Source: a virus
Strand: one strand, 5' to 3'
Virus record (IMG/VR): IMGVR_UViG_3300017971_000007
DNA: 64,000 nucleotides
Shown in pieces: positions 11,768-59,514 of the stretch. A program made the translations under genes and the position numbers. Position 1 is the stretch's first letter. The number at the start of each line of letters is the position of its first letter. The notes under the pieces are model-generated. The model made no database searches. It saw only the letters and a program-made list of their open reading frames with translations, and was not told the origin of the DNA.

Positions 11768-12175
11768 ATGGAAGTTAGTAAACTAGCCGGGATATTCGAT
11801 GAGTTAGAGAAAATATCCGCGACTGTGTTAATGAAAGAGCTGACCCCGGCGGCCAAAAAGTTTATGAACAGGCTGACGGGATTTAGTGGTGTCGAAAAAC
11901 ATGCTCCTCCCACAGCCAGAAAATTGAAAAAGCTGTTAACAGGCCCAGGCTCCCCCCCTCTCACTACCGGAATCTCACACTCCAAATCCCTCACGGATAA
12001 GGCTGTAAAGGAGCAGAGCAGGAAGGTGTTTGAGGATGTATTATCCAAATCCGGTAAAGTTTATAAGAGAGGGGTCCCATCCAAGGCCGAAAAAATATTA
12101 CCGAAAAAAGTCAGCACAAAAGTAACAGAAGTCATGCCGATTTCACCGAGTATTGTGGGAAAGATTCCTGAATAA
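11768..12175 (+). CDS. basic protein with N-terminal IFDELEKISA motif
   Basis: AGGAG SD; motif shared with other ORFs in the window. Confidence 0.75.
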   Translation: MEVSKLAGIFDELEKISATVLMKELTPAAKKFMNRLTGFSGVEKHAPPTARKLKKLLTGPGSPPLTTGISHSKSLTDKAVKEQSRKVFEDVLSKSGKVYKRGVPSKAEKILPKKVSTKVTEVMPISPSIVGKIPE

Positions 12176-15100
12176 ATGGCACAAGGTCATCATCTAAGAA
12201 TTAGGTTGTTTTTGGAGGGCGTCGAAGTTCCTGTGGTCGCCACCTCCATACAGGTTGCGGCTAATGTCCCGGCTACAGCCTCCATTCAGGTAATAGCTAC
12301 AGATAAGGTACTGGACCTCCTCCCAAGAACAGTTATTCACCTTTTTTATTATGACTATGTGGAAGCTGGGCACGTGGCTCTAGACAGAAAGAAGGCCAAT
12401 CTCTCCAAAGAGAGTTACGAAGACTGGTTCAATTCCAGATACAAGCTCTTATTTATGGGGGAACTAGTAACTATAAAATTCCAGAAGCAGACCGGCCAGA
12501 GAGCAGTTGTACTAGAATGCGCAGATTTCTCCAATTACTGGGATACAACTTTCCAATACAACTTCAATGGGTCCTTGTTTGGTGGAAGAAGGAAGGCAGC
12601 ATTTATTGGGGCGAATAGTAATTTCTTTACAAGCCCGCTGGGTCACGGAACAGGAACTATTTCCAGGCTGTTGAATGGAAGGTCGGTTAACTTCCCAGAG
12701 CTCCGCGGTCTCCTAGCAGGAGTGGTGAGGATGCTAGAGGCGATTGGCGGGAGCTATTACGGTAAGAATACGTTTAGGGGATGTAACGATTTCACATCTA
12801 TCGCAGAACTAAGACTAAAAATCCTTCAACAAATTACTGCCGCTGAAAAAGATACTAGTACGGCGAAGCTATTCGCCAGGAAATCATTTAATGCCTGGAT
12901 GAATAGGTCCACTCAGAGTCTAGGGCAGTTAGTCAGTTTCAGGGGTTTAGTGAAGACGTGTTTTGGTTTCATCTTTCATGAAGTTTATCCTTGCCCGGTA
13001 GCCAAATATGTCCCAGCCGGAAACAGGTCAGAAACCAGAAAATGGAATGTGGGATTACATCAATCAAACAAATACGCCGGTTTTGCTGCAAAAGCTAGGA
13101 ATTCACTAAATCTAGTCAACACAGCCAGGGAATGGCTCGGGAATTGGAGACAGGCTGTAGCTGGAGACGGGAACCCTCCAGCGTTTGCATCGGCTTATGT
13201 TAGGTCGTGGATAGCGGCAGAAAAATCAGTCAATGAGCTGTATGCTCTTGGAGCGGCGACTGCACCAAAAGGAGCTCAAAAGGGACTGGCTATAATTAAG
13301 GAGAAAATGGGGAAGATAAGAGCCTTGTCTGTTAATAATGGCTTAATTAGCGCAAATTGGGGACCGGGGTACGGAACCTTAGATAGGAACTATTCCCAGA
13401 TAGATATCGAATATCAGGGCATCATAACTGCTCTGAAAGACATCCTCGGTATCAGATTAGCTAGGAGCAAAAACGTTACGGTAGATACCCAGCCGCGAGT
13501 CAATAATCAGATATTCAGGCCGGATGTATGGTTTACTGCCCCCCCAAGATGTAATGTTCTATTCCCCGAGATGTACAATCAGTTTGATTTTTCCAGACAA
13601 TATCTTCGGGAAGTGTCTAGGATAGAGCTTCAAACCCACAACGAAATTCTAGGCAATGATGCTTTATTTAATGGCAGATACTACGCTCCGAATGTGGAAG
13701 ATGTTCGTAGAGGAGCGAAATTAAGCTCCAGAAGATTTGCTCGCATCATTATGGACCACGAGCTCTATACTGGAATTATCCCTATGTTCGAGAATATGAG
13801 CGAGGCTAATTTATTTGCGATGCGTTCTGGTAAGGTGAATAAATCTGGCGCGAAAGTCAGCTATGCTCAGCGAGCGGTTAACTTCCAGTACTTCAAGTAC
13901 AGATTTGACAGTAGGGCAATGTCTGCCTCTGGAAGATTCAATCCCCAATTTGTAGCCGGATTCCCTTCTCTCATCATAGACAGACCGATGACTCAGAAGG
14001 ACTTATTAATTTCCTCGTTACCAACTGCAGAGCAGATAAAAGCTTTGGAGGATGCCGGAAAGACCGTCGGGGAAAATACCAGCAGGGGAGAAATTCTTAA
14101 GGAATTGGTAGGTCCGCAATATCTTGGAGTGTGCGCTTCGTTGTCCCATGTCGTATCTCAGGGCGGGGGAATCACGAGCTATCAATTCATGCAAGCGAGA
14201 GTGCATAGGGAGAGTACGGAATTTCTGGGGGTGGATAAGGTAGATACGTACAAGCAGGTCGGTCCAGGTATCACTGACACGATAGTTGCTACTCCAGAGG
14301 GAAGCCCTCCAAAAATAGGAGGGCGCGGCCCAAAAGGGGGAAAGATAACCAGAATTATTCCTATGTCATCTTTTGTAAAAGGAAGGATTTTCCCAGTTCT
14401 CGGTAATGGGACCCGTGTAATCATCGGCGAACTTTATCCAGAACCGACATATAAGCCGGCATATTTCGAGATTTTTCAAGACAGAAGCATAATGCTTAAA
14501 GCAGAAGCTTATTCTGTCAAAGAAGGGTATACGAGATATGTGAAATCCGGACAGGCAGATCTTCCCATGGAAGAGGCGGTGGCCCCGCCGTGGATTTGGG
14601 ATGGGTGGAGAGTTCCCAAAATCAACGAAACATATGATCAGATATTGGGAACGACTTCCATAACAGATATTTCTGGATACAGCGCGATGCAGACTGATGA
14701 ATCAGGAGCTCAAAGATTTTATGTAGGAGACGACCAACAAGCTGTAATCCAAGACCAGAACGATGTCTACGCATCTGGAAAAGGTAAAAGGTCTATTGCC
14801 TCCAAAACCGATACCAGGAGCCAGGAAATAAATAAGGCTAAGAAAAATAGCAAATCGCTGTTCCTAATGGATAACGAACTTACTGTAGAAAATTCTGTGG
14901 ATTATTTGGTCAGGGCCTATAGTTTTGTGAAGGCAAACAATCTGGATGTCGGGGATTTTCTTAAGTCGTATGGATGGCGTCCCGTGGCTACGATGGTTGA
15001 TATTCTTGGAGGCCAGGACCTTGAGATAAAACAGGTCACTAGAAAAGCGAGGAAGGTAGTAAAGCAGAAATTTCTGAAGAAGGAAGCCGTTGTCGTAACA

Positions 15101-15463
15101 TACGGTTTGGAGGAAAAAGACCCTATATACCCGTTTGAAGTGACTCCTAAGTCGTATCTCCCGAAGGATTTTAATACAGAGACTGAGGTCCTGGCCAAGG
15201 CTGTATACGGTACTAGGTACGTCACCAAGCTCGTAGACCAAATTGGATATGAGGCCGTAGGGAAAGAAGGATTTCACAGTCGCGCCTACGGAGATGTTGA
15301 GGACCTATTTGGGTTGGTAAGCCCGACAGTTAAAAAGGTCCTTCGGCTGTCTCAAGGGAAACAGAGAAAGGTAGCAGCTCGATTGGATGTGAGGAAGAGA
15401 AGAAGGGCGGCAGTTAAATTGTACGTGGCTGAATTAACACATTCCAAGGGATTGCTCGGGTAG
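12176..15463 (+). CDS. probable baseplate hub-like protein, 1095 aa
   Basis: N-terminus RLFLEGVEVPV...PATASIQV...LFMGE resembles the first barrel of hub (gp27/VgrG-type) proteins; synteny. Confidence 0.5.
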   Translation: MAQGHHLRIRLFLEGVEVPVVATSIQVAANVPATASIQVIATDKVLDLLPRTVIHLFYYDYVEAGHVALDRKKANLSKESYEDWFNSRYKLLFMGELVTIKFQKQTGQRAVVLECADFSNYWDTTFQYNFNGSLFGGRRKAAFIGANSNFFTSPLGHGTGTISRLLNGRSVNFPELRGLLAGVVRMLEAIGGSYYGKNTFRGCNDFTSIAELRLKILQQITAAEKDTSTAKLFARKSFNAWMNRSTQSLGQLVSFRGLVKTCFGFIFHEVYPCPVAKYVPAGNRSETRKWNVGLHQSNKYAGFAAKARNSLNLVNTAREWLGNWRQAVAGDGNPPAFASAYVRSWIAAEKSVNELYALGAATAPKGAQKGLAIIKEKMGKIRALSVNNGLISANWGPGYGTLDRNYSQIDIEYQGIITALKDILGIRLARSKNVTVDTQPRVNNQIFRPDVWFTAPPRCNVLFPEMYNQFDFSRQYLREVSRIELQTHNEILGNDALFNGRYYAPNVEDVRRGAKLSSRRFARIIMDHELYTGIIPMFENMSEANLFAMRSGKVNKSGAKVSYAQRAVNFQYFKYRFDSRAMSASGRFNPQFVAGFPSLIIDRPMTQKDLLISSLPTAEQIKALEDAGKTVGENTSRGEILKELVGPQYLGVCASLSHVVSQGGGITSYQFMQARVHRESTEFLGVDKVDTYKQVGPGITDTIVATPEGSPPKIGGRGPKGGKITRIIPMSSFVKGRIFPVLGNGTRVIIGELYPEPTYKPAYFEIFQDRSIMLKAEAYSVKEGYTRYVKSGQADLPMEEAVAPPWIWDGWRVPKINETYDQILGTTSITDISGYSAMQTDESGAQRFYVGDDQQAVIQDQNDVYASGKGKRSIASKTDTRSQEINKAKKNSKSLFLMDNELTVENSVDYLVRAYSFVKANNLDVGDFLKSYGWRPVATMVDILGGQDLEIKQVTRKARKVVKQKFLKKEAVVVTYGLEEKDPIYPFEVTPKSYLPKDFNTETEVLAKAVYGTRYVTKLVDQIGYEAVGKEGFHSRAYGDVEDLFGLVSPTVKKVLRLSQGKQRKVAARLDVRKRRRAAVKLYVAELTHSKGLLG

Positions 15464-15498
15464 TTGCCATAACCTAAACACAGGGGTTAGAGTAAGAT

Positions 15499-15945
15499 AT
15501 GGATATAACAGCATTAGAGGGTTTGTTTGATGAGGTCATAAAGATTGCGGCATCTAAAAGGATGGCTTCGTATATGCAGTCACGAACCGGCACGAGACCA
15601 ATTCGAGTACAGACTCTTTTGGATAAAGAAAATAATCAAACACAACAACCTGATTTGACGATTCAGGAACCGGATACTCAACCTATAGATAAAGAAGCTG
15701 CAGAAGAGGGATGGCAAGAAAAGACAATCCGTCCCTTTGCCGTCGCCAGACCTTATGTGGCTAGCGCTGCCAAAGGAGCTGTCCCAGGTTCCATTATCGG
15801 TACGGTATTAGGCGGAGGGAAAGCCGGGAAGATGACTTTGATTGGAGCCGGGGTTGGAGCAGGTCTAGGAACTCTGGATGCGGCTTTGCAAAAATGGGCC
15901 AAAGATAATCCGAGACAAGCCAAAAAAGCTCTAAAAGGAGTATGA
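15499..15945 (+). CDS. protein with N-terminal LFDEVIKIA motif and C-terminal glycine-zipper segment
   Basis: ORF; GSIIGTVLGGG...GAGVGAGLG. Confidence 0.75.
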   Translation: MDITALEGLFDEVIKIAASKRMASYMQSRTGTRPIRVQTLLDKENNQTQQPDLTIQEPDTQPIDKEAAEEGWQEKTIRPFAVARPYVASAAKGAVPGSIIGTVLGGGKAGKMTLIGAGVGAGLGTLDAALQKWAKDNPRQAKKALKGV

Positions 15946-16457
15946 TGAGGAAGGTAGCTGAACCTCCCCCGCCAAAGGGTGTATCCTCTAGTGAATGGGA
16001 CAGGATACTGTCCGGTCCTCCAAAGAAAGGAACTACAATGCCTGGAAATTTTGGACCTGGCGGAAAGTGGATTCATGACCGTGCTCACCGAATAATGTCT
16101 GAATCACCTGACACAAAAAAAGAGACTGCCTATGCTGTAGCTACTCAGCAGGCCCATAAAGTCGGAAAAAGTCCCAAGGGATTTAAGACGTCTGCTGGTG
16201 TACAGGAAGCCAAACAAAAGTATGGACTTCCAAAAAAAGAATATCAGAAAACCGCTATGCTGGCCGGATTCTTCGACGAGTTGAGTAAATTATCAGCTAT
16301 GGGGATGGATTTGAGGATGAAAGGTCCTGGAGGTGTAAAGAGGCCGCCATTTCCGACTGAGGGGTCCAAAGCATTAGCGAATCAAAAATTAAAGCAGACT
16401 TCCAAGCCTATAAGTCCGCCAAATGTAACTCTTAAATCAGTCACTACGAGGGTGTAA
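15942..16457 (+). CDS. basic protein with internal FFDELSKLSA motif
   Basis: AAAGGAG SD; ATGA overlap. Confidence 0.75.
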   Translation: MMRKVAEPPPPKGVSSSEWDRILSGPPKKGTTMPGNFGPGGKWIHDRAHRIMSESPDTKKETAYAVATQQAHKVGKSPKGFKTSAGVQEAKQKYGLPKKEYQKTAMLAGFFDELSKLSAMGMDLRMKGPGGVKRPPFPTEGSKALANQKLKQTSKPISPPNVTLKSVTTRV

Positions 16458-16458
16458 T

Positions 16459-17004
16459 ATGACTGTTTCAGCAGAAAGATTTATTAACTTCATAAAACAG
16501 GCCAAGCAGGATAATCCCGGAGAAATGAGCGATGTCTCTGGAGAGCAGAACCCAGAGCCGCACGCTATCAAGTATCCAGAAGATGACAGCATGAACGGGA
16601 ATAGACCAGGTCAAGAGTCTCTCACAGGCGGCGCAGAGAGTGAGGCGCGGGAAGGAAAGACTGACTATCTTCGCGAGGCCTTCGAGAATTTTGATTCTGG
16701 TGCAAAGGAAACTGGAGATGTTCTAAACGAGGCCCTGGATAGTTTCGGAGATGAGAGCAACGTTCTGTCCAAACCTCAAACAGAAGTTGCTGGGGAGAAG
16801 TATAGTTCAGCAATAGGTGAGGCGTTTTTGGATGAGTTGTCCAGAATTAAGGAAGCTGGAGGATTGGTCGGTAAGATGCTGACGCATAATATCACTCCAG
16901 GTTCTGGTCCTATTCACAAGAGACTGGTGAAAGGTTTCAAAGGTTTAGGACAATTGGTGAAGTCTCAAGTTAAGCGTCACGGTGCGAAGGGCGCAATAGA
17001 CTGA
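16459..17004 (+). CDS. acidic-then-basic protein with FLDELSRIKEA motif
   Basis: coupled ORF; charge switches from acidic to basic at the motif. Confidence 0.75.
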   Translation: MTVSAERFINFIKQAKQDNPGEMSDVSGEQNPEPHAIKYPEDDSMNGNRPGQESLTGGAESEAREGKTDYLREAFENFDSGAKETGDVLNEALDSFGDESNVLSKPQTEVAGEKYSSAIGEAFLDELSRIKEAGGLVGKMLTHNITPGSGPIHKRLVKGFKGLGQLVKSQVKRHGAKGAID

Positions 17005-17007
17005 GAA

Positions 17008-17772
17008 ATGAACCCATTAGACGAAGCATATGAACTTCTCGAAAAAGAGGCTATGGCGAAAAAGCCTCTTACTCCACGCGCCCAGAAAGAAATTCAACTG
17101 TGGCATGACTGGAACAATAGCGGAAGAAAGCCTGATAAATTACGCCCGCTGTTAAAATCATTAGACCCTCTCATCAAAAACAAGCAGAGGTTGTACGAAA
17201 ATAGGTTGAGGGATATTCCTCCACCTGCTATCGCGGCGGAGTTCCAGGACCAGGCCGTAAACGCTATCAAGACCTTTGACCCGAATAGAGCTCAGCTTAA
17301 TACGTGGGTGAATAGTCAACTACGTAAGGTCAACAGATTTGTTGATACATACAGGAATACGGCGAGAATTGGGGAGAAGCGTATCAATCAAATAACTCAA
17401 TTCCAGAACGCGGAATCTCAACTAAAAGATGAACTTGGTAGATCCCCAACTGCATTTGAAATATCAGATTTCGCCAAACTTCCTCTTGGAGATGTCCAGA
17501 AGCTTCAATCGGAGATAAGGAGGACATATCCTACGAGTCAATTCGGCGATGCCAGTCCAGCGGCTGTAGTTCCTTCAAAAACAGATCATATCATGCGTCT
17601 TCTTCCTTATGAACTTACGCCGGAAGAAAACGCGGTGTTTGAGTATGTCTACGGAGTGGGAGGGAAACCAAGTCTCAGCACGAACGAGATAGCAAAAAAA
17701 TTAAATGTCAGCGCTCCAAAAATCTCAAGGCTGAAGCAGAATATCGCTAAAAAGTGGGGTGAATACGAATGA
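17008..17772 (+). CDS. sigma-70 family RNA polymerase sigma factor (regions 2-4, FliA/SigF-like size)
   Basis: region 2 AIKTFDPNRAQLNTWV; region 3 ELGRSPTAFEISD; region 4 HTH LSTNEIAKKLNVSAPKISRLKQ. Confidence 0.85.
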   Translation: MNPLDEAYELLEKEAMAKKPLTPRAQKEIQLWHDWNNSGRKPDKLRPLLKSLDPLIKNKQRLYENRLRDIPPPAIAAEFQDQAVNAIKTFDPNRAQLNTWVNSQLRKVNRFVDTYRNTARIGEKRINQITQFQNAESQLKDELGRSPTAFEISDFAKLPLGDVQKLQSEIRRTYPTSQFGDASPAAVVPSKTDHIMRLLPYELTPEENAVFEYVYGVGGKPSLSTNEIAKKLNVSAPKISRLKQNIAKKWGEYE

Positions 17773-17981
17773 CAAAAGCAGCCAGAGACGCAAGGCTTGA
17801 TGAATTAGAAAAAGCTAGTAAAGATTACGGAGAAAAGAAGCTGGAGCAGTTAGACTATGAAGCCCAGTTTCTAGAATCTGTAATCAATAGCAGAACCGGT
17901 GCCGGTCAGCTTGCTGATCAAGGGATATTCGGTTCTGTTGATTTACTGGCTGATTCGATAAAGCAATTTTTGGAGGGATAA
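17769..17981 (+). CDS. hypothetical protein, 70 aa
   Basis: ATGA-type overlap; contains RLDELEKAS. Confidence 0.65.
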   Translation: MTKAARDARLDELEKASKDYGEKKLEQLDYEAQFLESVINSRTGAGQLADQGIFGSVDLLADSIKQFLEG

Positions 17982-18277
17982 TGACTGAACAACGTGACGA
18001 GAAAGTCGATGGCGGCGGTAGTTTCGTGATGACAGAAATGGAAGTCCTTCGTGTAAGATTAGCGACTTCCGAGACAGAGATAGTAGCGAGGCAGATAGAG
18101 AAGCATCAATCTGAAATTAAGTATCTGGCTCTGAGAATCAAGGAATTGAATCAAGAGCTATCAAAAAAGAAAGCGAATGAACAAGAAACTATTTCCTCTC
18201 TGTTCTTATCGAGAGGTCTTGGTAGTTGTAAGATAGTCGGTGTCAAGGCCAACATCATCTCATACGAAAAAATTTAG
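17981..18277 (+). CDS. coiled-coil hypothetical protein, 98 aa
   Basis: GGAGG SD; TAATG overlap. Confidence 0.7.
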   Translation: MTEQRDEKVDGGGSFVMTEMEVLRVRLATSETEIVARQIEKHQSEIKYLALRIKELNQELSKKKANEQETISSLFLSRGLGSCKIVGVKANIISYEKI

Positions 18278-18315
18278 TTCCTCCTTCGAGGTATCTCCTT
18301 TTACAATTAGATATT

Positions 18316-18606: not shown

Positions 18607-18618
18607 AAGGAGTTTTAG

Positions 18619-21181: not shown

Positions 21182-21187
21182 CTCTCT

Positions 21188-26894: not shown

Positions 26895-27847
26895 TGGCGA
26901 CTATAAAACTTACCATCTACGTTTCGAATATAGATAATGTTTTGACACTGTATGACACCATGCAGGTCAGACGTTCCGCCACAGCTCCTCCAGCAGCGGA
27001 CCTAGTCTTCCTGACGGATACGACGGCTGCACCGGCCGAGCTCGTCGGTACTGAGGAGGGTCCGTTTATCTTAAACGGGAAAACCATGACCCTTAAGATA
27101 AACGGTACGGAGATGTCCGTGACGTTCGTGTCCCCAGACCCTATAGCTATTCCCGATGTCATTGACGAGCTGAATACTGCGTTCGGAGGGGCCGGCCTTC
27201 CAGCTACAGCCTCAGATGATGGAACAGGGAAACTGAAAATTGAGACAGATGATAGCGGAACTCAATTTACTATCGAGATGATTAGCGGGACAGCTCTTTC
27301 AGTTCTTGGATTTAGTATCGGGGATAAGGATAACGGAGAGGCGGCTCATATACCATTGGTTGCCGGAACCACGAGCTATGAATTCGATGATGGAAGCGGA
27401 CAACCAAGTTATTATTACTCGACGAGATTTTTTAATACCGCAAACGGTACGTACAGTGCCTGGTCAGACTGGATTCAGGGCCAGACAGTATCTGCAGTCG
27501 ATTCCGTTAATCTCATTATCGGAAAAATAAAATTGTCCGACCTGGACGGAAACGCACTATCTGGGGTGAAGGTCGTCATAGCCAATGCCTGGGAAGTACA
27601 GAAAGTCAACGGCTATGGAATTTTTGGAAGGTCCATCAGTATCGAAACCGATAGTACCGGCCAAGCTGAAACGACTTTGGTTAAGGGATCCAAAGTCGAT
27701 GTTATCATTTCCGGGACTTCAATCATCAGAAGGATAGTTGTGCCTAGCACTGGTACAGAGTTTGACTTACTGGATGATAGTCTGGTTGTAGCAGACGAGT
27801 TCGAAATCCAGAGACCGGATATCCCATATGCCGTCAGAAGATCGTAA
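26894..27847 (+). CDS. structural protein, 317 aa
   Basis: TAATG overlap; contains the DELNTAFG...ALSVLGF module also seen in the 29639 and 33559 products. Confidence 0.7.
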   Translation: MATIKLTIYVSNIDNVLTLYDTMQVRRSATAPPAADLVFLTDTTAAPAELVGTEEGPFILNGKTMTLKINGTEMSVTFVSPDPIAIPDVIDELNTAFGGAGLPATASDDGTGKLKIETDDSGTQFTIEMISGTALSVLGFSIGDKDNGEAAHIPLVAGTTSYEFDDGSGQPSYYYSTRFFNTANGTYSAWSDWIQGQTVSAVDSVNLIIGKIKLSDLDGNALSGVKVVIANAWEVQKVNGYGIFGRSISIETDSTGQAETTLVKGSKVDVIISGTSIIRRIVVPSTGTEFDLLDDSLVVADEFEIQRPDIPYAVRRS

Positions 27848-28394
27848 AGAATTCCATATCGAGAAAGGTAAGCAGGCCACGGTTGACTCATTTTTCGATG
27901 AGTTAGAGAAAATATGCGGAGTAGATTTGTCAGCGAAAATTTTTCTGAGAGAAAAAATAGCTGGGGTAGGTTTGGATATACACGGATATAGAAAAGATCC
28001 GTTCAATCCTCCGAAAAAACTAGTAGATGTGTATGAAGGAGACACTAGTTCTGCCAGAATAGATTGGCAGGACAATAACAGACAAAAAACTAAATTCGAT
28101 AACGAGTCTGGTCGCGGATATAAATTACATCTGGACAACCTACTAGGAGTGAGATGGGATAAACGCGATTTTTCTAGATTCAGCCAACCCAGTAAGTTTT
28201 TAGATAAAGCTACAGATGAGGCTTATACTGACACTCCCGTAAGCAGGAATCTATCTAGAAATGAAGTGCGTGATTTGATTCAGGATTATTCAAACAGGTC
28301 TGGAAACCATCCATATGAAAAGGCCTTCGTGAATAAAGCTAAGGAACTACTCAAAAACAGAGGCGTGAAATTTATCAGATTGGAATATGAATAA
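27828..28394 (+). CDS. charged protein with SFFDELEKIC motif
   Basis: ORF inserted between two structural genes; shares the motif. Confidence 0.7.
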   Translation: MPSEDRKEFHIEKGKQATVDSFFDELEKICGVDLSAKIFLREKIAGVGLDIHGYRKDPFNPPKKLVDVYEGDTSSARIDWQDNNRQKTKFDNESGRGYKLHLDNLLGVRWDKRDFSRFSQPSKFLDKATDEAYTDTPVSRNLSRNEVRDLIQDYSNRSGNHPYEKAFVNKAKELLKNRGVKFIRLEYE

Positions 28395-38091: not shown

Positions 38092-39318
38092 ATGTCGCAT
38101 GTTTACCAAAATGGCTTACTTCTAACGAGCCCGGCTTCTCAGGCAAATGGACGGACCTGGTCCAAATGGTTTTACATGACACTCACTGAGTGTTTAGGTT
38201 TAACCGTTGTCGACAAAGACACTAACGGACGATGGGACTCTACAAAGGGCTCAGGCTCTAGCGGTGCTACAGTCACATCGTATCCAGCCAACTTCGACAT
38301 AACGGGAGATGGCTACAATTTCACGACTGCAGATGAAGGTCGATATATTACGATAAGCGGCTTTACTGGCGAATTCTCCAACAGAAATGCTACTTATAGA
38401 ATTCTTAAGTATGTTTCCTCAAAAGTCGTCATTTTGGATATTCTAAGAAGCTGTCACTCAGAAGGGCTCCCCCCAACTTTCACAGGCCTAACTTGGAAAC
38501 TATGGGCGGCAGACACGACCGATTGTCCAGATGCCGGCGATTGGTTTGTCTATCCCGGGACCGGTCTCCAAGCTGGTGGCTTTACTTTCCATGTGAAAGT
38601 CACAGTCGGTATTTCTGGAACCTACACCTGCTACTTTCCACAATTTGAAGTCGGTCCCTACGGTGACTGGAATCCAGGGACTGACGCCTGGGGGAGTGCC
38701 AGGCATATCGACTATGGATTCATTAACAAGGACAATTCCATCTATCAAGTCGATGAGTCTTTCGTCATAGCTAGCATGAGTGAAGACTGCCTCACGGTTA
38801 TGACCAGGACCCTGGATAATTACAAATCCTGGCATGTTACTTATATTGGAGAAATAGACGTCGCTGACGACGTAACAGATACACGCCCAGTCGTCATCAT
38901 TCAAGGTTCAAATGGCGATGGAGATCTTGATAACATCATCGGCTACGGCCTGGATTCTTCAAATACCGACATCTATAAAGGCGCACGTTGGCTTTCTGCG
39001 GATGATGATACACTGACCGTTACGGGCTATCTCTGCACATACCAAGTACGGCCAGAGGCCGATGAGAGCATGGTCAGTGGCCAACACCGCAGTAAGAGCT
39101 CTCTGACTGGCAATAATTATGATGGATTCTTCACCCTCGAATGTAGGGATTGGGCGACGAACGGGGAGCTACGAGGAGTCACTAGAATCTTAGGCATGTC
39201 AAATGACGGAAACATGCGTGGAATACGTATGTTGGAAGGTTCTAGATTGCACGTTTTCGGAGGCCTATCATTGGCCTGGCACAACTCTAATATCTCAGAC
39301 CCGAGGATAGCGAGTTAA
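38092..39318 (+). CDS. putative tail/receptor-binding protein, paralogue A
   Basis: similar along its length to 40637-41929. Confidence 0.6.
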   Translation: MSHVYQNGLLLTSPASQANGRTWSKWFYMTLTECLGLTVVDKDTNGRWDSTKGSGSSGATVTSYPANFDITGDGYNFTTADEGRYITISGFTGEFSNRNATYRILKYVSSKVVILDILRSCHSEGLPPTFTGLTWKLWAADTTDCPDAGDWFVYPGTGLQAGGFTFHVKVTVGISGTYTCYFPQFEVGPYGDWNPGTDAWGSARHIDYGFINKDNSIYQVDESFVIASMSEDCLTVMTRTLDNYKSWHVTYIGEIDVADDVTDTRPVVIIQGSNGDGDLDNIIGYGLDSSNTDIYKGARWLSADDDTLTVTGYLCTYQVRPEADESMVSGQHRSKSSLTGNNYDGFFTLECRDWATNGELRGVTRILGMSNDGNMRGIRMLEGSRLHVFGGLSLAWHNSNISDPRIAS

Positions 39319-39321
39319 AAG

Positions 39322-40623
39322 ATGGGATATAAATACATTCGCTCACTTCACTTGTTTGATTCTGATACCTGGAGACGAGCACAACAAAAAGCTACCTGCT
39401 TGTTTCTAAGAGATTGTTGCGGATGGACAAATTTTGCGCAAAATATCATCTCTTCCGGTAGTTTTAATAACGTTGCCGGAGATGGTGTAGAGTATGTTGG
39501 CACGGATGGCCGATTTGACGGCACAGATTGGGTTCTAACTGCAGACTCCTCAACTCCGTTTTCTCCGACTGATGTCACGAAGCTTATACTGATTAATGCT
39601 CCTGATTCCTCGGTGACATGCGGCGTATATACGATTAAAGAATACATTTCTTCGTCACAGGTAAAGATTGATTACAGGGCGGACCCAACGAGTGAATTTC
39701 CTCCTTCAAATCTTGGAGGAACGGCCATCACTTACAAGGTCTGGGCATATAATTATCAATCCCCCGCCTCAAACGGTGATTATTGGAGACTAGAATCTCC
39801 AGACGCATCCAATTGGGCCATTGAATGGCGTTATTATAATGCGGATGAAGCTTGGATTCGTGTGGCAGTGGACGGCAGTTGGGCCGGTAGTAAGATTCTT
39901 GGAGGGGATAATAATACTGAAAATGACCTTAATTTCGGTATTGACCACGGGGAAGGTCATATCTTTTTTAATGTTATTGCTGAAGACAACGGGGAATTGC
40001 TATTGGTGACGAATACACACTACAATACGCAGTACAGCAAATATACGTATGATCACGCTTCTGCCTTCATGGTTAATAAGTTTATGCCGCATTCAGGAAT
40101 TACGTTAGCTGACGAGGAAAAAATCGCGTTATTCGGGCAAAAGACCAGAAAAAAAGAATGGATGTGGGAGCGTATAAGCGATAATTATCGACTAACGCGT
40201 TTTAGGTCGTGGAGTAATTATCACTCTACCTACCTGACAGGGTATGTCTCTGAAGGTATTAATTATAGAGAGACTAGTGCTATAACCCACAAATCCAATT
40301 GGCCTAACTCATTCAGAGACACAAAATACAGAAGTTATGATTTTGTAGGACCTCTAGCTAATAAAATTGGGGATGTGCTAATAACTGATGATCTGAACAA
40401 TAATGAGCTGAAATATCAAAAACTAGGAACAGCCCAACATTATTATGTAACTCCGCCAGTTTTCGTGAATTTTGGCGCGGGTGAGGCGGAGATAAGTACT
40501 CAAGCTTGCTCTGTCCCCCATAAGACACTTTCCAAGACCTCAAGTACATCAAAAGGTGTTTTAACATGCCCCTGCGGCTGGGCTTTTCCATGGCCTGAGG
40601 ACATATCGTTTATTCTTTTTTAA
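39322..40623 (+). CDS. putative tail/receptor-binding protein, paralogue B
   Basis: similar to 41939-43552 (RVAVDGSWAGSKI vs RVAVDGSFAGSKI). Confidence 0.6.
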   Translation: MGYKYIRSLHLFDSDTWRRAQQKATCLFLRDCCGWTNFAQNIISSGSFNNVAGDGVEYVGTDGRFDGTDWVLTADSSTPFSPTDVTKLILINAPDSSVTCGVYTIKEYISSSQVKIDYRADPTSEFPPSNLGGTAITYKVWAYNYQSPASNGDYWRLESPDASNWAIEWRYYNADEAWIRVAVDGSWAGSKILGGDNNTENDLNFGIDHGEGHIFFNVIAEDNGELLLVTNTHYNTQYSKYTYDHASAFMVNKFMPHSGITLADEEKIALFGQKTRKKEWMWERISDNYRLTRFRSWSNYHSTYLTGYVSEGINYRETSAITHKSNWPNSFRDTKYRSYDFVGPLANKIGDVLITDDLNNNELKYQKLGTAQHYYVTPPVFVNFGAGEAEISTQACSVPHKTLSKTSSTSKGVLTCPCGWAFPWPEDISFILF

Positions 40624-40636
40624 GGAGCTACCGTAT

Positions 40637-41929
40637 ATGGAAATTTACCAAAACGGTCTACCTCTCGTAACTCCAGACGGTGTTGCAGATTCTACCGGGC
40701 GCACATACAGTAAATGGCTATACCAGACTCTTAGAGTTAGTGGATGGACGATTGTTGATTCATCTGGTACGGCTTGGACTTCTTACAAAGGAGTTGGTGT
40801 TGCCGGTAAAACTGTTCTCAATGAACCTTCGCAATTCGACACATCAGTTGACGCCTCTTATGTATTTACTTCTGCTGATGTCGGAAGGTATATAACAATT
40901 TATGGATTTATAGCTCCGTATACACACATTAACGGTACTTGGAGAATCTTGAAGGTCTTATCGGATTACGTTATAGAGCTTGATATCCTTAGAGGGGTGC
41001 ATGATTCCGGTCTTCCTAATAGCCCAATAGTCACTGGTCTGACATGGGAATTTTGGGCAGCAGATGCAACAGATTGTCCAGCTACTAATGATCGGATAGT
41101 TGCACGAGGCGAAGGTATTACTCGCGCTGCGCCGTATAATTTTGATGTCCATATCAGAGTAACGGCTATCGGAAGTGACGCCGGAGCGACCTACAATTCG
41201 TGCTTTCCTGCTTATATTGTAGGCCCGTACGGAAATTGGAATGCTGGAAGCCACGATTGGGATGATTCTCGACACACTAGTGAAAGAGCCTCTGGAGGAA
41301 GTGGATTTTTAAGAGAGGTCGATGAAGCCTTGATTTTTTGTTGTGTGGATACTGACAGTTTTGCTGTAGTTATCAGAGAAGTGAACAGTTACGAAAACAC
41401 TGCCTGGAATTATGTCAACGTAGGAGAATTCACGCCGATATTCCCCGAAGCGTTGGATCCCAAGCCTGTTGCTGTATGGACGGGGAGTAATTATTGGCGA
41501 ACAGATGGCGGCAGAGACGCGTCAGCTCTTGGTTATGGTTTGGATACCGGAGGCCAGTTGTACAACGGTGTTCGATACTTAAAATGGCCTGATGAAGTGG
41601 ATACTGTCACCGGTTACGTTTATTTAGATGCTATTAGAGCATATTTTGGCACTTACGGTTATGCAACTCCAGTTATCGGCGGTGCGCACAGACTAAAAGA
41701 TCCAGTTAGCGATAGAATCTATTATCAGAAATTAGTTATCGGCACTCTTGAAAATTCCAGTGGCGCTGGAGAGTACAGGGGGTCAATTAAGAAAATGAAA
41801 TATATTAGTCACACGTATCATCAGCTCGTACACGGAACTAATTCAGCGGAACTTGCTCTCGGTACCGGTATAACGATGAAATGGCACGGAGCTACTATAC
41901 ACAATACGAACATCGACTATCGGGGATAG
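40637..41929 (+). CDS. putative tail/receptor-binding protein, paralogue A'
   Basis: AAGGAG SD; YQNGL...GRTYSKW, WAADATDCP and VGPYGNWN shared with A. Confidence 0.6.
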   Translation: MEIYQNGLPLVTPDGVADSTGRTYSKWLYQTLRVSGWTIVDSSGTAWTSYKGVGVAGKTVLNEPSQFDTSVDASYVFTSADVGRYITIYGFIAPYTHINGTWRILKVLSDYVIELDILRGVHDSGLPNSPIVTGLTWEFWAADATDCPATNDRIVARGEGITRAAPYNFDVHIRVTAIGSDAGATYNSCFPAYIVGPYGNWNAGSHDWDDSRHTSERASGGSGFLREVDEALIFCCVDTDSFAVVIREVNSYENTAWNYVNVGEFTPIFPEALDPKPVAVWTGSNYWRTDGGRDASALGYGLDTGGQLYNGVRYLKWPDEVDTVTGYVYLDAIRAYFGTYGYATPVIGGAHRLKDPVSDRIYYQKLVIGTLENSSGAGEYRGSIKKMKYISHTYHQLVHGTNSAELALGTGITMKWHGATIHNTNIDYRG

Positions 41930-41938
41930 AGGGAGTCA

Positions 41939-43552
41939 ATGACTTACATCAGAGAAGTGAATCCGTCTTCTGCTTTCGAATTTGGACTTAAAGCTCTAGC
42001 TCTCCAGCTTTATTATATCGAGGGTTTTGGCAGTCAGACCGAGGATGTTGATATCTACGGCGTGGGGGATTCTGTAACAGACCCCGACGGCGCAAACAAG
42101 CAGACATTAACTGATGCCGCCGGGAAATTTGTTGCTGCTGATGTGGGTAGGTCTATAACTGTTTCTGGTATGACTAACCCGAATAACAACAACACCTTCA
42201 CTATCACTGATTATGTCTCTGGTACCCAAATCAAGTACGTGAACGCGGCAGGTGGGGCAGAAACTAGTGCATTTGATTGGGTCATCAGTATCTCTGACGC
42301 CAGTTATTTTTCAACAGAGAAGAACGGTTCTAATGGGGAGATAAATCTTACAGGCTCTGACTTCAATTTTAAGGACGCAACTGCTAGCCTGTTCGTTGTC
42401 GGGGATGAAGGGAAGTGGTTGCTCCTTTGTGATAATGCCACGAGTTCCGGGACAGGGGATTCAGTTTCTGCGCCAGTGGCAGGGGAGCAAACTCTAACAG
42501 ATGCTGCCGGTCTTTTTGTCGCATCAGACGATGGACGTCTGATTGCCATTAGCGGTATGACGAATCCGAGAAACAATGGTGTCTTCCTCGTCACGTATAT
42601 CAGTGCCACGCAAGTCAAGTACGTCAATCCTACAGGCGGGGCTGAGACGGCAGACTTTTCGTGGTCTATAAGCTCTAGAATAAGTGGAATTTATAAAATT
42701 AGCACCTACGTAGATGCAACTACTGTTACTATCGATTTAAGGAGTGGGGCGACTGAATATCCGACACAAAGAGTCTCTCCCGATGACGATATCGTCTGGC
42801 ATGTTTTGGCTGAGGATTATCAACTGCCTAATAGAGACACTCAATGGTTCCGACTGACAACCCCGCATGCCTACGGATGGGCCGTAGAGATCCAAAGAAA
42901 TACGGGCTCGACATACGTGGGGGCGACAGCCAGGGTGGCTGTAGATGGAAGCTTTGCCGGTTCCAAAATCATAGGCCCGGTTTACTTCGGCGCGAATAGT
43001 ACGGATGAAGTCTGGTTTTATGCCAGCATCTCTCCCGAGAAAATAATCTTTCCGTTCCACAACGTCACGGATTCCAATTGGGGTGGTTTCATCGTGTCTC
43101 ATCTTGAGGCCCTAGAAAGCTCGGAAAAGGCTAACGAGAGCAAAATAGCTCTCATGGGCGACGCCAATTCTGACTACAACCAGTGGGGCAATAACTGGAC
43201 GTTTGGGTGGAGCATCGATGACGTAAATGGCGGCTACACCTGGAATTACGGTCAATCCATGCGATGCTCCGCATGCGATTTGTCTTACCGAAATTCTACC
43301 GAGAGCCTTCGCAGGCAAAGCGGGCGCGGAATGAACAAGAGAACCGGAAAATATGACTTAGTCAGGGCGCTATTCATTCAAGACCGCAACAATGACAGCG
43401 GATATTATGAAAGACTTGGTGCCTTGCTTGGTTTTTATGTAAGTCCAGCTATAGCAGAAAAAACAGCAATTGATAATGTGTGGACTAAAAATAAATTCCA
43501 TATTACTAGCGGCCTTGTAATGGATTGGCCTGGATACACTCCGCAGCACTAA
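41939..43552 (+). CDS. putative tail/receptor-binding protein, paralogue B' with two inserted ~77-aa modules
   Basis: modules at 42056-42289 and 42443-42673. Confidence 0.6.
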   Translation: MTYIREVNPSSAFEFGLKALALQLYYIEGFGSQTEDVDIYGVGDSVTDPDGANKQTLTDAAGKFVAADVGRSITVSGMTNPNNNNTFTITDYVSGTQIKYVNAAGGAETSAFDWVISISDASYFSTEKNGSNGEINLTGSDFNFKDATASLFVVGDEGKWLLLCDNATSSGTGDSVSAPVAGEQTLTDAAGLFVASDDGRLIAISGMTNPRNNGVFLVTYISATQVKYVNPTGGAETADFSWSISSRISGIYKISTYVDATTVTIDLRSGATEYPTQRVSPDDDIVWHVLAEDYQLPNRDTQWFRLTTPHAYGWAVEIQRNTGSTYVGATARVAVDGSFAGSKIIGPVYFGANSTDEVWFYASISPEKIIFPFHNVTDSNWGGFIVSHLEALESSEKANESKIALMGDANSDYNQWGNNWTFGWSIDDVNGGYTWNYGQSMRCSACDLSYRNSTESLRRQSGRGMNKRTGKYDLVRALFIQDRNNDSGYYERLGALLGFYVSPAIAEKTAIDNVWTKNKFHITSGLVMDWPGYTPQH

Positions 43553-56139: not shown

Positions 56140-56140
56140 A

Positions 56141-56473
56141 ATGAATCAGATTGTCGAAATCCTTATAAGTTGGCAGGCTTTGTTGATATCGTTGTCGGTA
56201 TCCACGATTCTGCATCTAATCAAAGCCACGTACTTGTACGACAGGAAATGGTTTAAGGCTTTCATGCCTTTGTATCCTTTCGTACTAGCAGTTGGGATAG
56301 TGCTGATTCCAGGCATAGACCCTCCAGCCCCCATCAAATCCACAGTCCCGGAGATTCTGTACGGAGTCTATGCCGGTTGGTTGTCATCGTTCTCCTTTCA
56401 GCTATTCAAGAGCGTGCTCAAGAAAGGATTCGGTCTGAAAAGTCTGAATACGGATAATGCTGGAGAAGATTAA
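56141..56473 (+). CDS. holin-like membrane protein with 3 TM segments (start revised to 56141)
   Basis: AGGAGG upstream; three hydrophobic segments; basic C-terminus. Confidence 0.55.
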   Translation: MNQIVEILISWQALLISLSVSTILHLIKATYLYDRKWFKAFMPLYPFVLAVGIVLIPGIDPPAPIKSTVPEILYGVYAGWLSSFSFQLFKSVLKKGFGLKSLNTDNAGED

Positions 56474-56768
56474 GAAATACTGGAAATGGTTCGTGGCTGG
56501 TCTAGTATCAGCCACTATCGCTATAATGGGGGTATTGTTGTGGAGGAGAGGAAAGGTCAAAACGGATTCTGTAACCAGCGACAAGGCCGCGGACAAACTT
56601 GAGAAGGACTTAATTGAGATTCAGAAGAAGAAAGAAGACGACCTAAAAAAATTGGAGGAGCAGCGCAAGGATAAGCTCGGTAGGATGTCAGAAGAGCAGC
56701 ATGAAGAGTACGAGAAGTTGAAAAACAAACCCGTAGAGGAAGTTGCCGAATGGATAGACAAGCTCTAG
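56457..56768 (+). CDS. i-spanin-like protein (N-terminal TM + coiled coil)
   Basis: KKYWKWFVAGLVSATIAIMGVLLW followed by a charged helix. Confidence 0.5.
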   Translation: MLEKIKKYWKWFVAGLVSATIAIMGVLLWRRGKVKTDSVTSDKAADKLEKDLIEIQKKKEDDLKKLEEQRKDKLGRMSEEQHEEYEKLKNKPVEEVAEWIDKL

Positions 56769-57514
56769 ACCTATATCCGTCATTCTTTGACGAACTAGAA
56801 AAAATCGCTGACTATAGCACAGCAGCAATTGCGCACGAATTAGGCCATGCTCAAGCTTTTGAGCAAAGCAAGATACCTGTAGGTCTAGATATTGGCGGAA
56901 GGGCGGCGATAAAATTAGTAGGCAATCTCGCATCATACCTTTCGACTCTACAAGGTAAGCCTGGTTTGGCCGCAATCTCATCGTTAGTAGCTGATTCCCC
57001 GACATTAGTAAGTGAGGGAAGAGCAAGTTACAAGGCCTTGAAGTCCCTGAAAGAAATGGGAATCAGTGAAGACGACTACAAGACTACCAGAAAGAATCTA
57101 GCCAAGGCATTCGGGACGTACATGATTCCAGCTGCAGCCAATGCTCTTACTAGAGCCGGTGCCTCGCATTTGATGAAGAAGGGTGTCGTGGGCAGGAGCC
57201 CCGATTCATTGGCTGGGACATTAATGACTGAATCGGTTATCGGTATGTTAGGTTCTGGAGCACTGAAAAAGTCATTCGACAAAACAAGGAAAGACTCGGT
57301 GTTAAGTAGAGAGCAGGTAGAGCAGTTAAAGAAGCAGATGGGAGTAGCTACTGGATTTTACAAGGCCAAGAAATCCCTACAATCAGATGCGTATATGCCT
57401 CCTCAACCAAAAATTCTTAGGAAGCCCATCGAGAGAAGTTTAAAGCCGTACCTGAGAGAGAAATCGAAATCTAAAGAGATTGTAGAAAAAGGCGGAATAT
57501 TGCTTTTGGATTAG
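56750..57514 (+). CDS. SFFDELEKIA-tagged zincin-like metallopeptidase
   Basis: HELGH (HExxH) plus downstream SEGRASYKA (third-ligand ExxA). Confidence 0.65.
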   Translation: MDRQALDLYPSFFDELEKIADYSTAAIAHELGHAQAFEQSKIPVGLDIGGRAAIKLVGNLASYLSTLQGKPGLAAISSLVADSPTLVSEGRASYKALKSLKEMGISEDDYKTTRKNLAKAFGTYMIPAAANALTRAGASHLMKKGVVGRSPDSLAGTLMTESVIGMLGSGALKKSFDKTRKDSVLSREQVEQLKKQMGVATGFYKAKKSLQSDAYMPPQPKILRKPIERSLKPYLREKSKSKEIVEKGGILLLD

Positions 57515-57518
57515 GGCT

Positions 57519-57809
57519 ATGATTACTTCCTTACTTAGTTCCTTTCCGTTGTACGCCGAGCTGGGGAAACTTGGTATTGTCGGCGTTGTTGTGGGCGTTC
57601 TTATCTATTTATTAGTGCAGAGTCGAAAAGAGGTCAGGCATCTGCTTTCCTCGAATGAGAAGTCAGCAACTGACTACATGAAGCACATAGATGAGCTGAC
57701 TAAAATCACAATAGAGACTAATTGGGAGTGCAGTAAGGCCATGACAGTACAGGCTGAGGTCCTGCGCTCATTTGAGAGAATCATCGACGGACAGAGGCGA
57801 GACAAATGA
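57519..57809 (+). CDS. single-TM membrane protein (BhlA-like holin architecture)
   Basis: LGIVGVVVGVLIYLLV followed by a coiled coil. Confidence 0.45.
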   Translation: MITSLLSSFPLYAELGKLGIVGVVVGVLIYLLVQSRKEVRHLLSSNEKSATDYMKHIDELTKITIETNWECSKAMTVQAEVLRSFERIIDGQRRDK

Positions 57810-58117
57810 ACGGTTTCAAGAAAACAATCGAGAGACTTGGACTAGTAGAAAAAGGGGTAATCGATGAACTCAAATTGGGGGGCGAGGAGCTTCTAGATTA
57901 TCTCGTCCAAAAGAAGATACTTGATAGTGAGTATCTTCCAATTATCAAGGAAGTGGCCGAGGATGTAGGAAGCGAGAACCAGCTTCAAGTTCTTAGGGGG
58001 GAACAGAAGATACTGAAGGTTCAGTGCTCTCACGTGATCAAGAAATCGGCGAAGATAATTGCTAGGATGAGAGATGCTCCTATCCCCAAGAAACATGATC
58101 TAGTGGCAGTAAAATGA
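57806..58117 (+). CDS. hypothetical protein, 103 aa
   Basis: ATGA overlaps on both sides. Confidence 0.65.
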   Translation: MNGFKKTIERLGLVEKGVIDELKLGGEELLDYLVQKKILDSEYLPIIKEVAEDVGSENQLQVLRGEQKILKVQCSHVIKKSAKIIARMRDAPIPKKHDLVAVK

Positions 58118-59514
58118 ACTCATCATTCTTCGACGAATTAACAAAGATAGCAGAAGAGCATAAACTACAAGGACATACTAATTTCCAGGGTATTCCGATT
58201 GCCGTAGAGAATAGGAAAGGGTCTGTTAGGAAAGGAACAGATTCTGACGGGAATGAGTGGCGAACGGAGATGAAGTACCCGTACGGGTATGTGAAGGGGA
58301 CGAAGGGGGCTGATGGGGAAGAAATCGATGTCTATGTCGGTCCTAATAAAGAATCCCCTAATGCTTTCGTAGTCCATCAAAAGGACAAGGATACCGGGAA
58401 GTATGACGAGGATAAATGCTTTCTTGGGTTCGATTCCAAGAAAGATACTAGAGAGGCTTTCCTGAAACACTACGACAGCCCGAAATTTTTGGGGCCTATA
58501 TCCAAGGTTCCGATAGAGAAGCTAAAAGAAAAAATAAGAGAAGGTAAGCAGCTGACGAAAATCAGTTCTTGTGTGGAATTTGAGAAAAATGCTGTCGACC
58601 CCCTCACGTTGGCCGGATTAGGGGCCTTGTCCCATGTAGGCGCGAACCTGGCCGTGAAAGCGGGACACGGAACAAAATTTCTTAGGAATGTGAGAAGCGG
58701 AGGTCTAGCCAGAGGAATCCGTTCTGGAATAGAAGGAAAGCCGCAGGGAATCGGAAGCAGGATGCTGGAAACGTGGGCCGGTCCGGAATTGGTGGCCACA
58801 GAGCATGCTGGAAGAGGTATCGGAAAGATATTAAGAGGGAGAACTCCTCATCAGCAAAAAAGAGCACTAAAGAAATTACGAAAAGCCGTGGCTATGAACC
58901 CAAACTTAAAACATACCCCGATAATGGAGGACGTAGTAGGAGGAGTAACTAAGGCAATAGAGGGAGGATTACCGAAAGCTGGACCGGTTAGAGAAGCTGG
59001 AAGGCTTGCAAGAGCTGCCGCATTCGCTCCAGCACCTATTCTGGCCGCGACCGAACCCTCGGCCTTAGTTCATATGGGAATTAATGTGGCCAGAAAGGGT
59101 GTAGCTCAAAGCAAAGCAGGCAAAGAGTTCATGAGAAAGGGTATGAAACGTGGTCTAGTAGAAGGGGGAGCAGATGCTGCTCCTTCTGTTAGGGAGAGGA
59201 TAATGGATGTCCTAGTTTCTCCAGCCGCCTTGCACACAGAACGTATGGGCAGAGCCATGGCGGACCTTCCTGCAACAGCTAGTAAAGAGCAGTTAGCTAG
59301 ATTAACCGGAGCTAGCCATAGTTTGATGGGTCAAAAAAGATTGAGAGGTGCTATCAAGAGGGCACCTAAGGCAGCCGAAGAAAAAATTAAAGGCGAGGCA
59401 AGACAGATTAGAGGCGATATCCAGGAAATGGCCCGTCCGGCTCCAAGGAAGGCTTCTCCAGCACCTTCTGTCGGTGCTACAGATTACGGCATACCATTGG
59501 GAGTAAGATGGTGA
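58114..59514 (+). CDS. SFFDELTKIA-tagged protein: inorganic-pyrophosphatase-like (InPase) domain + basic Gly/Ala-rich region
   Basis: IAVENRKGSVR, YGYVKGTKGADGEEIDVYVG and YDEDKCFLGF motifs of the phage InPase domain. Confidence 0.8.
   Translation: MNSSFFDELTKIAEEHKLQGHTNFQGIPIAVENRKGSVRKGTDSDGNEWRTEMKYPYGYVKGTKGADGEEIDVYVGPNKESPNAFVVHQKDKDTGKYDEDKCFLGFDSKKDTREAFLKHYDSPKFLGPISKVPIEKLKEKIREGKQLTKISSCVEFEKNAVDPLTLAGLGALSHVGANLAVKAGHGTKFLRNVRSGGLARGIRSGIEGKPQGIGSRMLETWAGPELVATEHAGRGIGKILRGRTPHQQKRALKKLRKAVAMNPNLKHTPIMEDVVGGVTKAIEGGLPKAGPVREAGRLARAAAFAPAPILAATEPSALVHMGINVARKGVAQSKAGKEFMRKGMKRGLVEGGADAAPSVRERIMDVLVSPAALHTERMGRAMADLPATASKEQLARLTGASHSLMGQKRLRGAIKRAPKAAEEKIKGEARQIRGDIQEMARPAPRKASPAPSVGATDYGIPLGVRW

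Follow-up and report, generated by a model that had tools for sequence, protein, structure and literature searches.

A conserved F-F-D-E-L-type peptide on unrelated virion-region proteins of an uncultured phage clade is a candidate capsid-targeting leader

The 64,000-nucleotide stretch of IMG/VR record IMGVR_UViG_3300017971_000007 analyzed here (the window) represents the region of virion genes in an uncultured phage of about 175 kb, and nearly all of its long open reading frames (ORFs) from 6303 to 60083 lie on the plus strand. A sequence-only reading had pointed to a short peptide of the type F-F-D-E-L-x-K-I-A (the tag) on window proteins that are otherwise unrelated (the cargos), and had proposed that it loads them into the capsid and is cut off during head maturation. 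The question raised by this locus is what such a shared peptide does. Our analysis of the window and its relatives suggests, with a probability that we put at roughly 0.6, that the peptide is a capsid-targeting propeptide resembling the capsid-targeting sequence (CTS) of phage T4, in a clade that is not T4-like.

A six-frame scan of the window with the regular expression [FL]DE[LIV]x[KR][IL] gave exactly seven matches, all seven in plus-strand ORFs (Table 1; ORFs are named by their start positions), and the previously noted tag coordinates agree with those of the scan to within 3 nt. Five of the tags are N-terminal, their first aromatic residue lying at residues 5 to 22; the other two are internal (residue 110 in 15942 and residue 123 in 16459), in keeping with the earlier description of a motif that usually lies within the first 30 or so residues or else separates unlike segments. 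No two window cargos are alike by BLAST, and no recognizable tail or fiber protein carries the tag, both as had been described.

Relatives of the phage were found through a 1095-aa neighbor gene, at 43 to 61% identity, as five IMG/VR contigs of 137 to 193 kb with GC contents of 0.43 to 0.61. A 16-column hidden Markov model (HMM) made from the tags was run on the window and these five relatives, as had been proposed, and gave 47 clear matches at 14.6 bits or more, with everything else at 8.2 bits or less; there are 4 to 10 per contig, and 47/47 are on the virion-gene strand. The logo of these tags reads [GAS]-F-[F>L,V,Y]-D-E-L-[E>T,Q,S]-K-I-[A,G,S]. The D and E are present in all 47, the L and K in 44, and the I in 41; the residue before K is Glu in 30/47, and the positions past the final small residue are not conserved. 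In most tags the first aromatic is residue 9 of a leader that starts M-[DE], and the typical leader, of about 18 residues, is M-[DE]-x3-[LI]-x-[GSA]-F-F-D-E-L-E-K-I-[AGS]. Modeled as a helix, the tag is amphipathic, with a hydrophobic moment of about 0.47 that exceeds most shuffles of the same residues, and a structure model of the 15499 protein has a low-confidence helix over residues 4 to 28.

At the DNA level, a degenerate pattern of the core peptide has 22 matches in the relatives, all on the structural-gene strand, while its reversed control has 0. Codon usage within the tag varies and the GC content of tag-bearing contigs runs from 0.42 to 0.68, which, together with the empty control, argues for selection on the peptide. 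The stricter pattern FFDELEKI occurs in at least 50 IMG/VR stretches, and at about 45 of 48 FFDELEKI sites among the IMG/VR matches listed there is a Met 3 to 12 residues upstream and a small residue on either flank, one before F-F and one after K-I. Cellular genomes (GTDB, 596 Gb) hold scattered internal matches, 3/76 of which look N-terminal. A homologue of one and the same major capsid protein, at 45 to 86% identity, is encoded by 19 of 28 tag-bearing contigs, and the CheckV-complete tag-bearing contigs with this capsid protein measure 192 to 202 kb. As judged by these comparisons, the tag is a peptide-level signal of one large phage clade. A tag profile searched against 5.8 billion proteins (8000 candidates scored) recovered mostly the input family, under the sole name "hypothetical protein"; tblastn of the 1095-aa window protein against GenBank phages returned nothing, and a full-text literature search for the motif returned no relevant paper.

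The location of the tags within a genome could be assessed in the complete relative, G005, where 9/9 lie in two structural gene blocks and 0 in the 62 other plus-strand genes (P = 0.004). The tag is not equally common there in nonvirion proteins; an equal frequency was the outcome that the sequence-only reading had named as speaking against capsid loading.

The cargo set was taken from 70 tagged proteins (alignment A2), and 69 tag-stripped cargos fell into 49 BLAST clusters, the largest of which has 9 members. Pfam recognized an InPase domain in three of the 70, DUF6321 in one, and a Zn-peptidase, weakly, in one. The cargos have a median length of 107 aa (the longest tagged protein has 466 aa) and a pI above 9 in 67/70 cases, versus 40% of other plus-strand proteins (P = 3e-21); G, A, P, and S are abundant in them, and GxxxGxxxG occurs in 34%, compared with 10% of the background. 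By these sequence traits (small size, basic charge, and glycine zippers) the cargos look like internal or ejection proteins. InPase and zincin-like domains are hallmarks of phage polyvalent proteins, which are predicted to be packaged and injected (PMC5512222). Among InPase orthologues the tag adjoins the domain, lies about 100 aa away from it, or is degenerate, and this varying placement indicates that the tag is portable.

The head module is located outside the window and was studied in the relatives, where the protease and the capsid protein were identified by gene order, PHROG matches, and fold; the relatives also encode portal-like genes and a tail sheath. A 623-aa protease-scaffold protein of G005 has orthologues in 19/19 contigs tested, and His119 and Ser176 are invariant in an alignment of it with 18 orthologues (alignment A1). 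Its modeled protease domain (residues 50 to 272; block-mean pLDDT, about 57 to 94) has T4 gp21 (5jbl) as best PDB match, with a Foldseek probability of 0.98, a VIA Z of 9.0, and an rmsd of 2.7 Å over 133 residues, followed among the structure matches by herpesvirus proteases (Z, 5.5 to 7.3). C-terminal to the protease the protein has a disordered linker and then a helical domain. According to these models, the relatives encode a protease of the T4 gp21/assemblin fold fused to a scaffold-like domain. The Pfam models S78 and Phage_capsid had no match in the five relatives; the S77 model had none there and none in control genomes either, and is hence uninformative. The orthologues of the protease in relatives G003 (L022:1237-5256) and G004 (L036:11321-14275) are 1339 and 984 aa long versus 623 aa, and the extra length, which lies inside the protease part, may represent inteins. 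In G005 (L012:5597-8911), adjacent ORFs of 391 and 712 aa behind a tagged gene have a weak portal match and a LAGLIDADG domain, respectively, and resemble a portal gene into which an intein or homing endonuclease has been inserted.

The motif that ends many tags, E-K-x-A, is enriched 2- to 3.4-fold on the virion strand in five of five relatives (z, 2.3 to 8.7), where the composition-matched controls A-x-K-E, K-E-x-A, E-x-K-A, E-K-A-x, D-K-x-A, and Q-K-x-A are not enriched. Outside the tags it is concentrated in head-module proteins: in G005 there are seven copies in the 121908 product, four in the protease, four in the 150254 product, and three each in the products of 151377 and 139536. A hydrophobic residue two positions ahead of K is frequent at these sites, and the Ala is mostly followed by A, S, E, or G. 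The capsid protein has E-K-I-A at about residues 23 to 26 in all relatives, and in the protease K47-x-A49 is invariant within an otherwise variable, disordered N terminus. The window holds 10 E-K-x-A, with 3.9 expected, of which one is in a tag core (56750) and six lie in tagged proteins or in a sigma factor (see below). Bare K-x-A, which had been taken to mark boundaries, is not enriched in the window (77 seen, 67 expected; z, 1.2), and the enriched unit is E-K-x-A. Of the earlier notion of a portable amphipathic helix joined to a K-x-A site, the portability (49 cargo families) and the amphipathicity (moment of about 0.47) hold up and the bare K-x-A does not.

From these sequences we infer that E-K-x-A at the tag end is a cleavage site, for which three bonds are candidates. 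Herpesvirus assemblin (pUL26) cuts between Ala and Ser in (V/L/I)-x-A-S, and a herpes-like cut after Ala would fit the invariant K-x-A. A cut after the Glu preceding K is the candidate suggested by analogy with gp21-type proteases, since every characterized one cuts after Glu (PMC5694885). The third candidate is a cut after the invariant Glu of F-D-E, which formally fits hydrophobic-x-E, though the conserved end of the tag is K-I-[AGS].

Under the capsid-targeting reading, about 10 small, strongly basic proteins would be made late in infection, each with a leader, many with glycine zippers and a few of them enzymes (InPase and a zincin-like protein). Through its invariant face, which is hydrophobic and acidic, each leader would dock the cargo on a conserved part of the assembling prohead, and the core, the scaffold domain of the protease, and the inner face of the capsid protein are candidates for this part. 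The gp21/assemblin-fold protease would then cut at or beside the E-K-x-A that ends the leader, a motif that recurs in scaffold-like proteins, in the linker and N terminus of the protease, and near the N terminus of the capsid protein. The freed basic cargo would stay with the DNA and probably exit with it at infection. The F-F-D-E-L core is far more conserved than E-K-x-A outside the tags, which argues for a binding role of the tag beyond that of a cut site.

The closest known system is that of T4, in which the CTS on IPI, IPII, IPIII, and Alt is removed by the prohead protease gp21 (Mullaney & Black 1996, as reviewed in PMC5694885). In both systems a short N-terminal leader (10 to 20 aa) is common to unrelated proteins, the cargo is small and basic, a gp21-fold protease is encoded (here seen in the relatives), enzymes are also among the proteins carried in the head (here by prediction), and the leader-end motif is found again in scaffold or core proteins and at the N terminus of the capsid protein. 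The two leaders differ in that they have no sequence similarity and that the putative site here is E-K-x-A, whereas that of T4 is [LI]-x-E; assignment of the tag to the T4 CTS sequence family was rejected, as the logo differs and the conserved end is K-I-[AGS] rather than [LI]-x-E. In contrast to T4, moreover, this clade has a capsid protein whose closest match is that of Salmonella phage Arash (26% identity) and a protease that continues into a scaffold-like C-terminal domain, and its tag is conserved almost letter for letter across GC contents of 0.42 to 0.68 and is also found internally at fusion joints. The principle itself dates back to 1996 in T4; what differs here is the tag sequence, the putative site, and the lineage, and no description of these was found in our literature search.

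Arash is also the nearest cultured relative of this phage. Among GenBank phages the capsid protein matches solely Arash and three Vibrio phages. Arash gp4, gp6, gp8, gp10, gp12, gp13, and gp14 are syntenic with, and weakly homologous to, 6303, 10325, 12176, 17008, 32908, 33559, and 48208. Mass spectrometry of Arash virions detected RNA polymerase β and β′, the sigma factor gp10, a helicase, and many unknown proteins (PMC10585845), which indicates that this lineage packs many proteins into its head. There is no FFDEL-type tag in the 90 kb of Arash examined; packaging without it implies that the tag is not the sole route into such heads. In the head module upstream of the capsid gene of Arash (OQ632216), gp218 to gp225 contain about 14 hydrophobic-E-K-x-A-[SA] sites, and the Arash capsid protein has K-E-A where the uncultured clade has E-K-I-A. 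The presence of E-K-x-A sites without the FFDEL tag suggests that E-K-x-A is the older of the two. The published coverage figures for Arash are too coarse to show cleavage. The counterpart of gp4, an abundant Arash virion protein, is the 1225-aa virion protein at 6303 to 9980 of the window, which has a long low-complexity N terminus rich in Gly, Met, and Ala.

Several points weigh against a head address. The tagged proteins are known from genes alone, as the phages that bear the tag are uncultured, and the evidence on the protease, scaffold, and capsid protein comes only from relatives with 43 to 61% identity in the neighboring gene. Arash virions hold the sigma factor and many enzymes with no FFDEL tag (90 kb examined), and the Arash list of 116 "virion" proteins may itself include contaminants. 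The Glu rule of gp21-type proteases (PMC5694885) is set against a Glu before K in just 30/47 tags, and at the protease's own K-x-A site this Glu is not conserved. The model of a tagged protein, that of 15499, has a mean pLDDT of 51.

The leader could instead be nothing but a cleavable acidic mask, acting within its own polypeptide to keep basic membrane-active or DNA-binding proteins harmless and without any addressing role; it would be removed by the head protease or by the tagged zincin, and the cargo would be incorporated into heads through its charge or other contacts. Such a mask should vary along with its cargo, whereas one and the same tag is found on 49 unrelated families, and ten residues of which three are acidic cannot neutralize cargos of 50 to 450 residues. 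The conservation of F-F-D-E-L (D and E, 47/47), far above that of E-K-x-A elsewhere, points rather to a binding epitope. We consider the mask unlikely, even though it would agree with an acidic tag on almost uniformly basic cargo, with the glycine zippers in many cargos, with a tag that ends in E-K-x-A, with the presence of an HExxH peptidase among the tagged proteins, and with the packaging of many proteins without a tag in Arash.

Equally doubtful is a docking helix for a partner outside the head, be it one of the phage itself (a chaperone, its RNA polymerase, or its sigma factor), a host protein, or a membrane or lysis complex, with the tagged proteins acting in the producing cell and not carried in the virion. 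This would suit 56750 and 58114, which are situated among genes for small membrane proteins, and the three tagged genes directly before the sigma factor gene; it is opposed by the confinement of the G005 tags to structural gene blocks, the occurrence of tagged genes between scaffold-like genes there (e.g., 151112), the enrichment of the tag-ending motif in head-module proteins, and the resemblance of the cargo to internal or ejection proteins (basic, with glycine zippers, InPase, and a zincin-like domain). Descent of one paralogous family or chance, with no functional signal in the peptide, is very improbable, because although some tagged proteins are orthologues or paralogues (up to 9 in one BLAST cluster), there are 49 BLAST-unrelated clusters with distinct Pfam domains, 47/47 matches on one strand, 0 in the reversed DNA control, a fixed N-terminal register, and no such N-terminal context in cellular genomes.

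A capsid-targeting propeptide can further be compared with systems other than that of T4. In phiKZ, 201phi2-1, and SPN3US, head and ejection proteins are processed by gp175/gp245 at [SAG]-x-E (PMC5694885). Going by the predictions for the present clade, that group resembles it in its large myovirus heads with an RNA polymerase and many ejection proteins, in having several cleavage sites per substrate, and in its gp21-fold protease, which cuts itself; its propeptides, however, exceed 100 aa, share no common short tag, and are cut after Glu, and no strictly conserved portable leader has been described there. Herpesvirus pUL26 shares the protease fold (Z, 5.5 to 7.3) and the order of protease, flexible linker with cut sites (putative ones here), and scaffold-like domain, and E-K-x-A-[AS], an Ala with a small residue, would fit its P1 Ala rule, a resemblance that is only suggestive; it belongs, however, to an animal virus with no cargo-tag system. 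Encapsulin cargo-loading peptides are short and portable and, as proposed here for the tag, load unrelated cargo into an HK97-fold shell, but they are usually C-terminal and uncleaved, have another motif, and serve a compartment with no portal, protease, or DNA. An encapsulin peptide was rejected for the tag, which is N-terminal and whose phages have relatives with a terminase, portal-like genes, a tail sheath, and a prohead protease. With the polyvalent proteins (Iyer et al. 2017, PMC5512222) the clade shares InPase, a zincin-like domain, and, in a relative, a helicase, all predicted to be delivered with DNA; here these domains are on separate, individually tagged small proteins and not on one giant polypeptide. 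A double-glycine leader (C39), which would have Gly-Gly, Gly-Ala, or Gly-Ser at positions -2 and -1, three residues past the conserved Ile, was rejected, since positions +3 and +4 after K-I are not conserved (no search for a C39 peptidase was made).

Table 1. Tag-bearing and related genes of the window, and head-module genes of relative G005
Contig	Feature	Position	Strand	Length (aa)	Tag core	HMM score (bits)	Remarks
Window	Tagged gene	11768..12175	+	135	11789-11821	21.5	Leader residues 1-18
Window	Tagged gene	15499..15945	+	148	15520-15552	17.4	
Window	Fusion protein	15942..16457	+	171	16266-16298	20.3	Internal tag
Window	181-aa protein	16459..17004	+	181	16822-16857	15.6	Internal tag
Window	Sigma-70-family factor	17008..17772	+				Sigma70 r3/r4, phrog_351; inside virion operon
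Window	Tagged gene	27828..28394	+	188	27888-27920	22.7	Tag from residue 21 onward
Window	Tagged HExxH (zincin-like) protein	56750..57514	+	254	56780-56812	22.3	
Window	Tagged InPase-domain protein	58114..59514	+	466	58123-58155	20.5	
G005	Terminase	143316					
G005	Protease-scaffold protein	148304-150175		623			
G005	Acidic scaffold-like protein	150254					
G005	Tagged gene	151112		83			Between scaffold-like genes
G005	Low-complexity scaffold-like protein	151377					
G005	Major capsid protein	153406					phrog_2522; 72-89% identity among relatives

Among the individual cargos of the window, that of 11768 is basic (pI, 10.3) and has a second E-K-x-A at residue 43, and its orthologue in G005, at 100117, has the same N-terminal tag. 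The 15499 protein, which has tagged orthologues in G001, G002, G003, and G005, has after its tag a conserved Q-S-R-x-G-x-R-P-I-R block and a C-terminal glycine zipper, with weak Gly-zipper and P22 gp7 C-terminal matches. Across its family (alignment A4) an invariant Q-x-R-x-G-x-R-P-I-R block directly follows the tag, and the glycine zipper further on has a weak likeness to the C terminus of the P22 ejection protein gp7. The 27828 protein has a second E-K-I-A at residue 42 and no homologue among the five relatives. The zincin-like 56750 protein matches PF04298 with an E value of 3.3e-5, below the curated cutoff, and G001 encodes a tagged homologue. In 58114, the InPase domain occupies residues 17 to 141 (PF18823; E value, 1.5e-45) and the C-terminal part is basic and rich in Gly and Ala; between the two, at residue 157 (58582-58593), lies E-K-N-A, and the V-E-F-E-K-N-A previously noted within this protein is indeed an E-K-x-A site.

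The internal tags follow Q-K-T-A-M. In 15942 a conserved N-terminal part ending in Q-K-T-A is followed by Met, the internal tag, and a short basic cargo, and residues 106 to 156 align with a tagged 77-aa gene that stands alone in G002 (49% identity; E value, 3e-12). No Shine-Dalgarno ribosome-binding site precedes the internal Met, and together with the G002 match this indicates that at least the internal tag of 15942 marks a fusion joint. In the 16459 protein, the weakest internal tag stands between an acidic N-terminal part and a basic C-terminal cargo of 50 aa. The proposal that some cargos are polyproteins fits the fusion in 15942, whose parts are split in G002, and gains no support from 58114: the C-terminal part of that protein is not homologous to the separately tagged G005 103055, and split-gene support for its E-K-N-A was rejected.

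Two looser variants in the window had been listed as well. The L-D-E-L-E-K-A-S of the 17769 product was discarded, as it scores 6.8 bits and its orthologues keep the helix but not E-K-x-A. The 17008 product, a sigma factor, does not carry an FFDEL tag; it has a distinct N-terminal extension of about 20 to 25 aa (leader residues 1 to 15 at 17008-17052) that ends in E-K-E-A, and the extension ends in [EQ]-K-x-A in 4/6 orthologues. The syntenic sigma factor of Arash, gp10, is without this extension. By its sequence, the extension may be a second leader type, and the sigma factor may be packaged by means of it. A further variant was seen in G005 (L011:600-2012), where a gene for an SNF2-type helicase lies between a tagged gene and an InPase gene; the helicase has L-W-E-E-L-E-K-C-A at about residue 10, which the HMM missed, and there are probably more divergent tags.

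PHROG and Pfam searches with the large window proteins gave few matches, and PDB sequence searches with three window proteins gave none. At 38092 to 43552, four adjacent genes for proteins of 408 to 537 aa are apparently paralogous and fiber- or receptor-binding-like; 38092 and 40637 both match one G002 gene at 31% identity, and the four-gene set is poorly conserved among the relatives.

A broader reading, whose chances as a whole we judge to be slightly below even, would make the nearly invariant ten-residue peptide a universal "load into the head" address of a large, widespread, uncultured myovirus clade with genomes of 117 to 200 kb. The whole injected proteome, about 10 proteins for each phage and 49 or more cargo families in all, would be readable from sequence; it would include pore-forming glycine-zipper peptides, InPase, the zincin-like peptidase, and perhaps the helicase; the sigma factor would use the second leader type; the E-K-x-A cleavage rule would differ from the Glu rule of the characterized gp21-type proteases; the tag would work at the internal joints of fused cargo; and it would be usable for protein delivery.

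Should the tag be a head address, a motif search could list the proteins that an entire uncultured clade packages and injects, which would give a handle on proteins of early host takeover and DNA delivery that are otherwise unannotated. It would be a second example beside the T4 CTS, unrelated to it in sequence, in a lineage with RNA polymerase and a sigma factor in the virion, and would imply a new specificity for a protease of the gp21/assemblin fold. Foreign proteins have been loaded into T4 capsids with elements of just this type, a short and strictly conserved tag.

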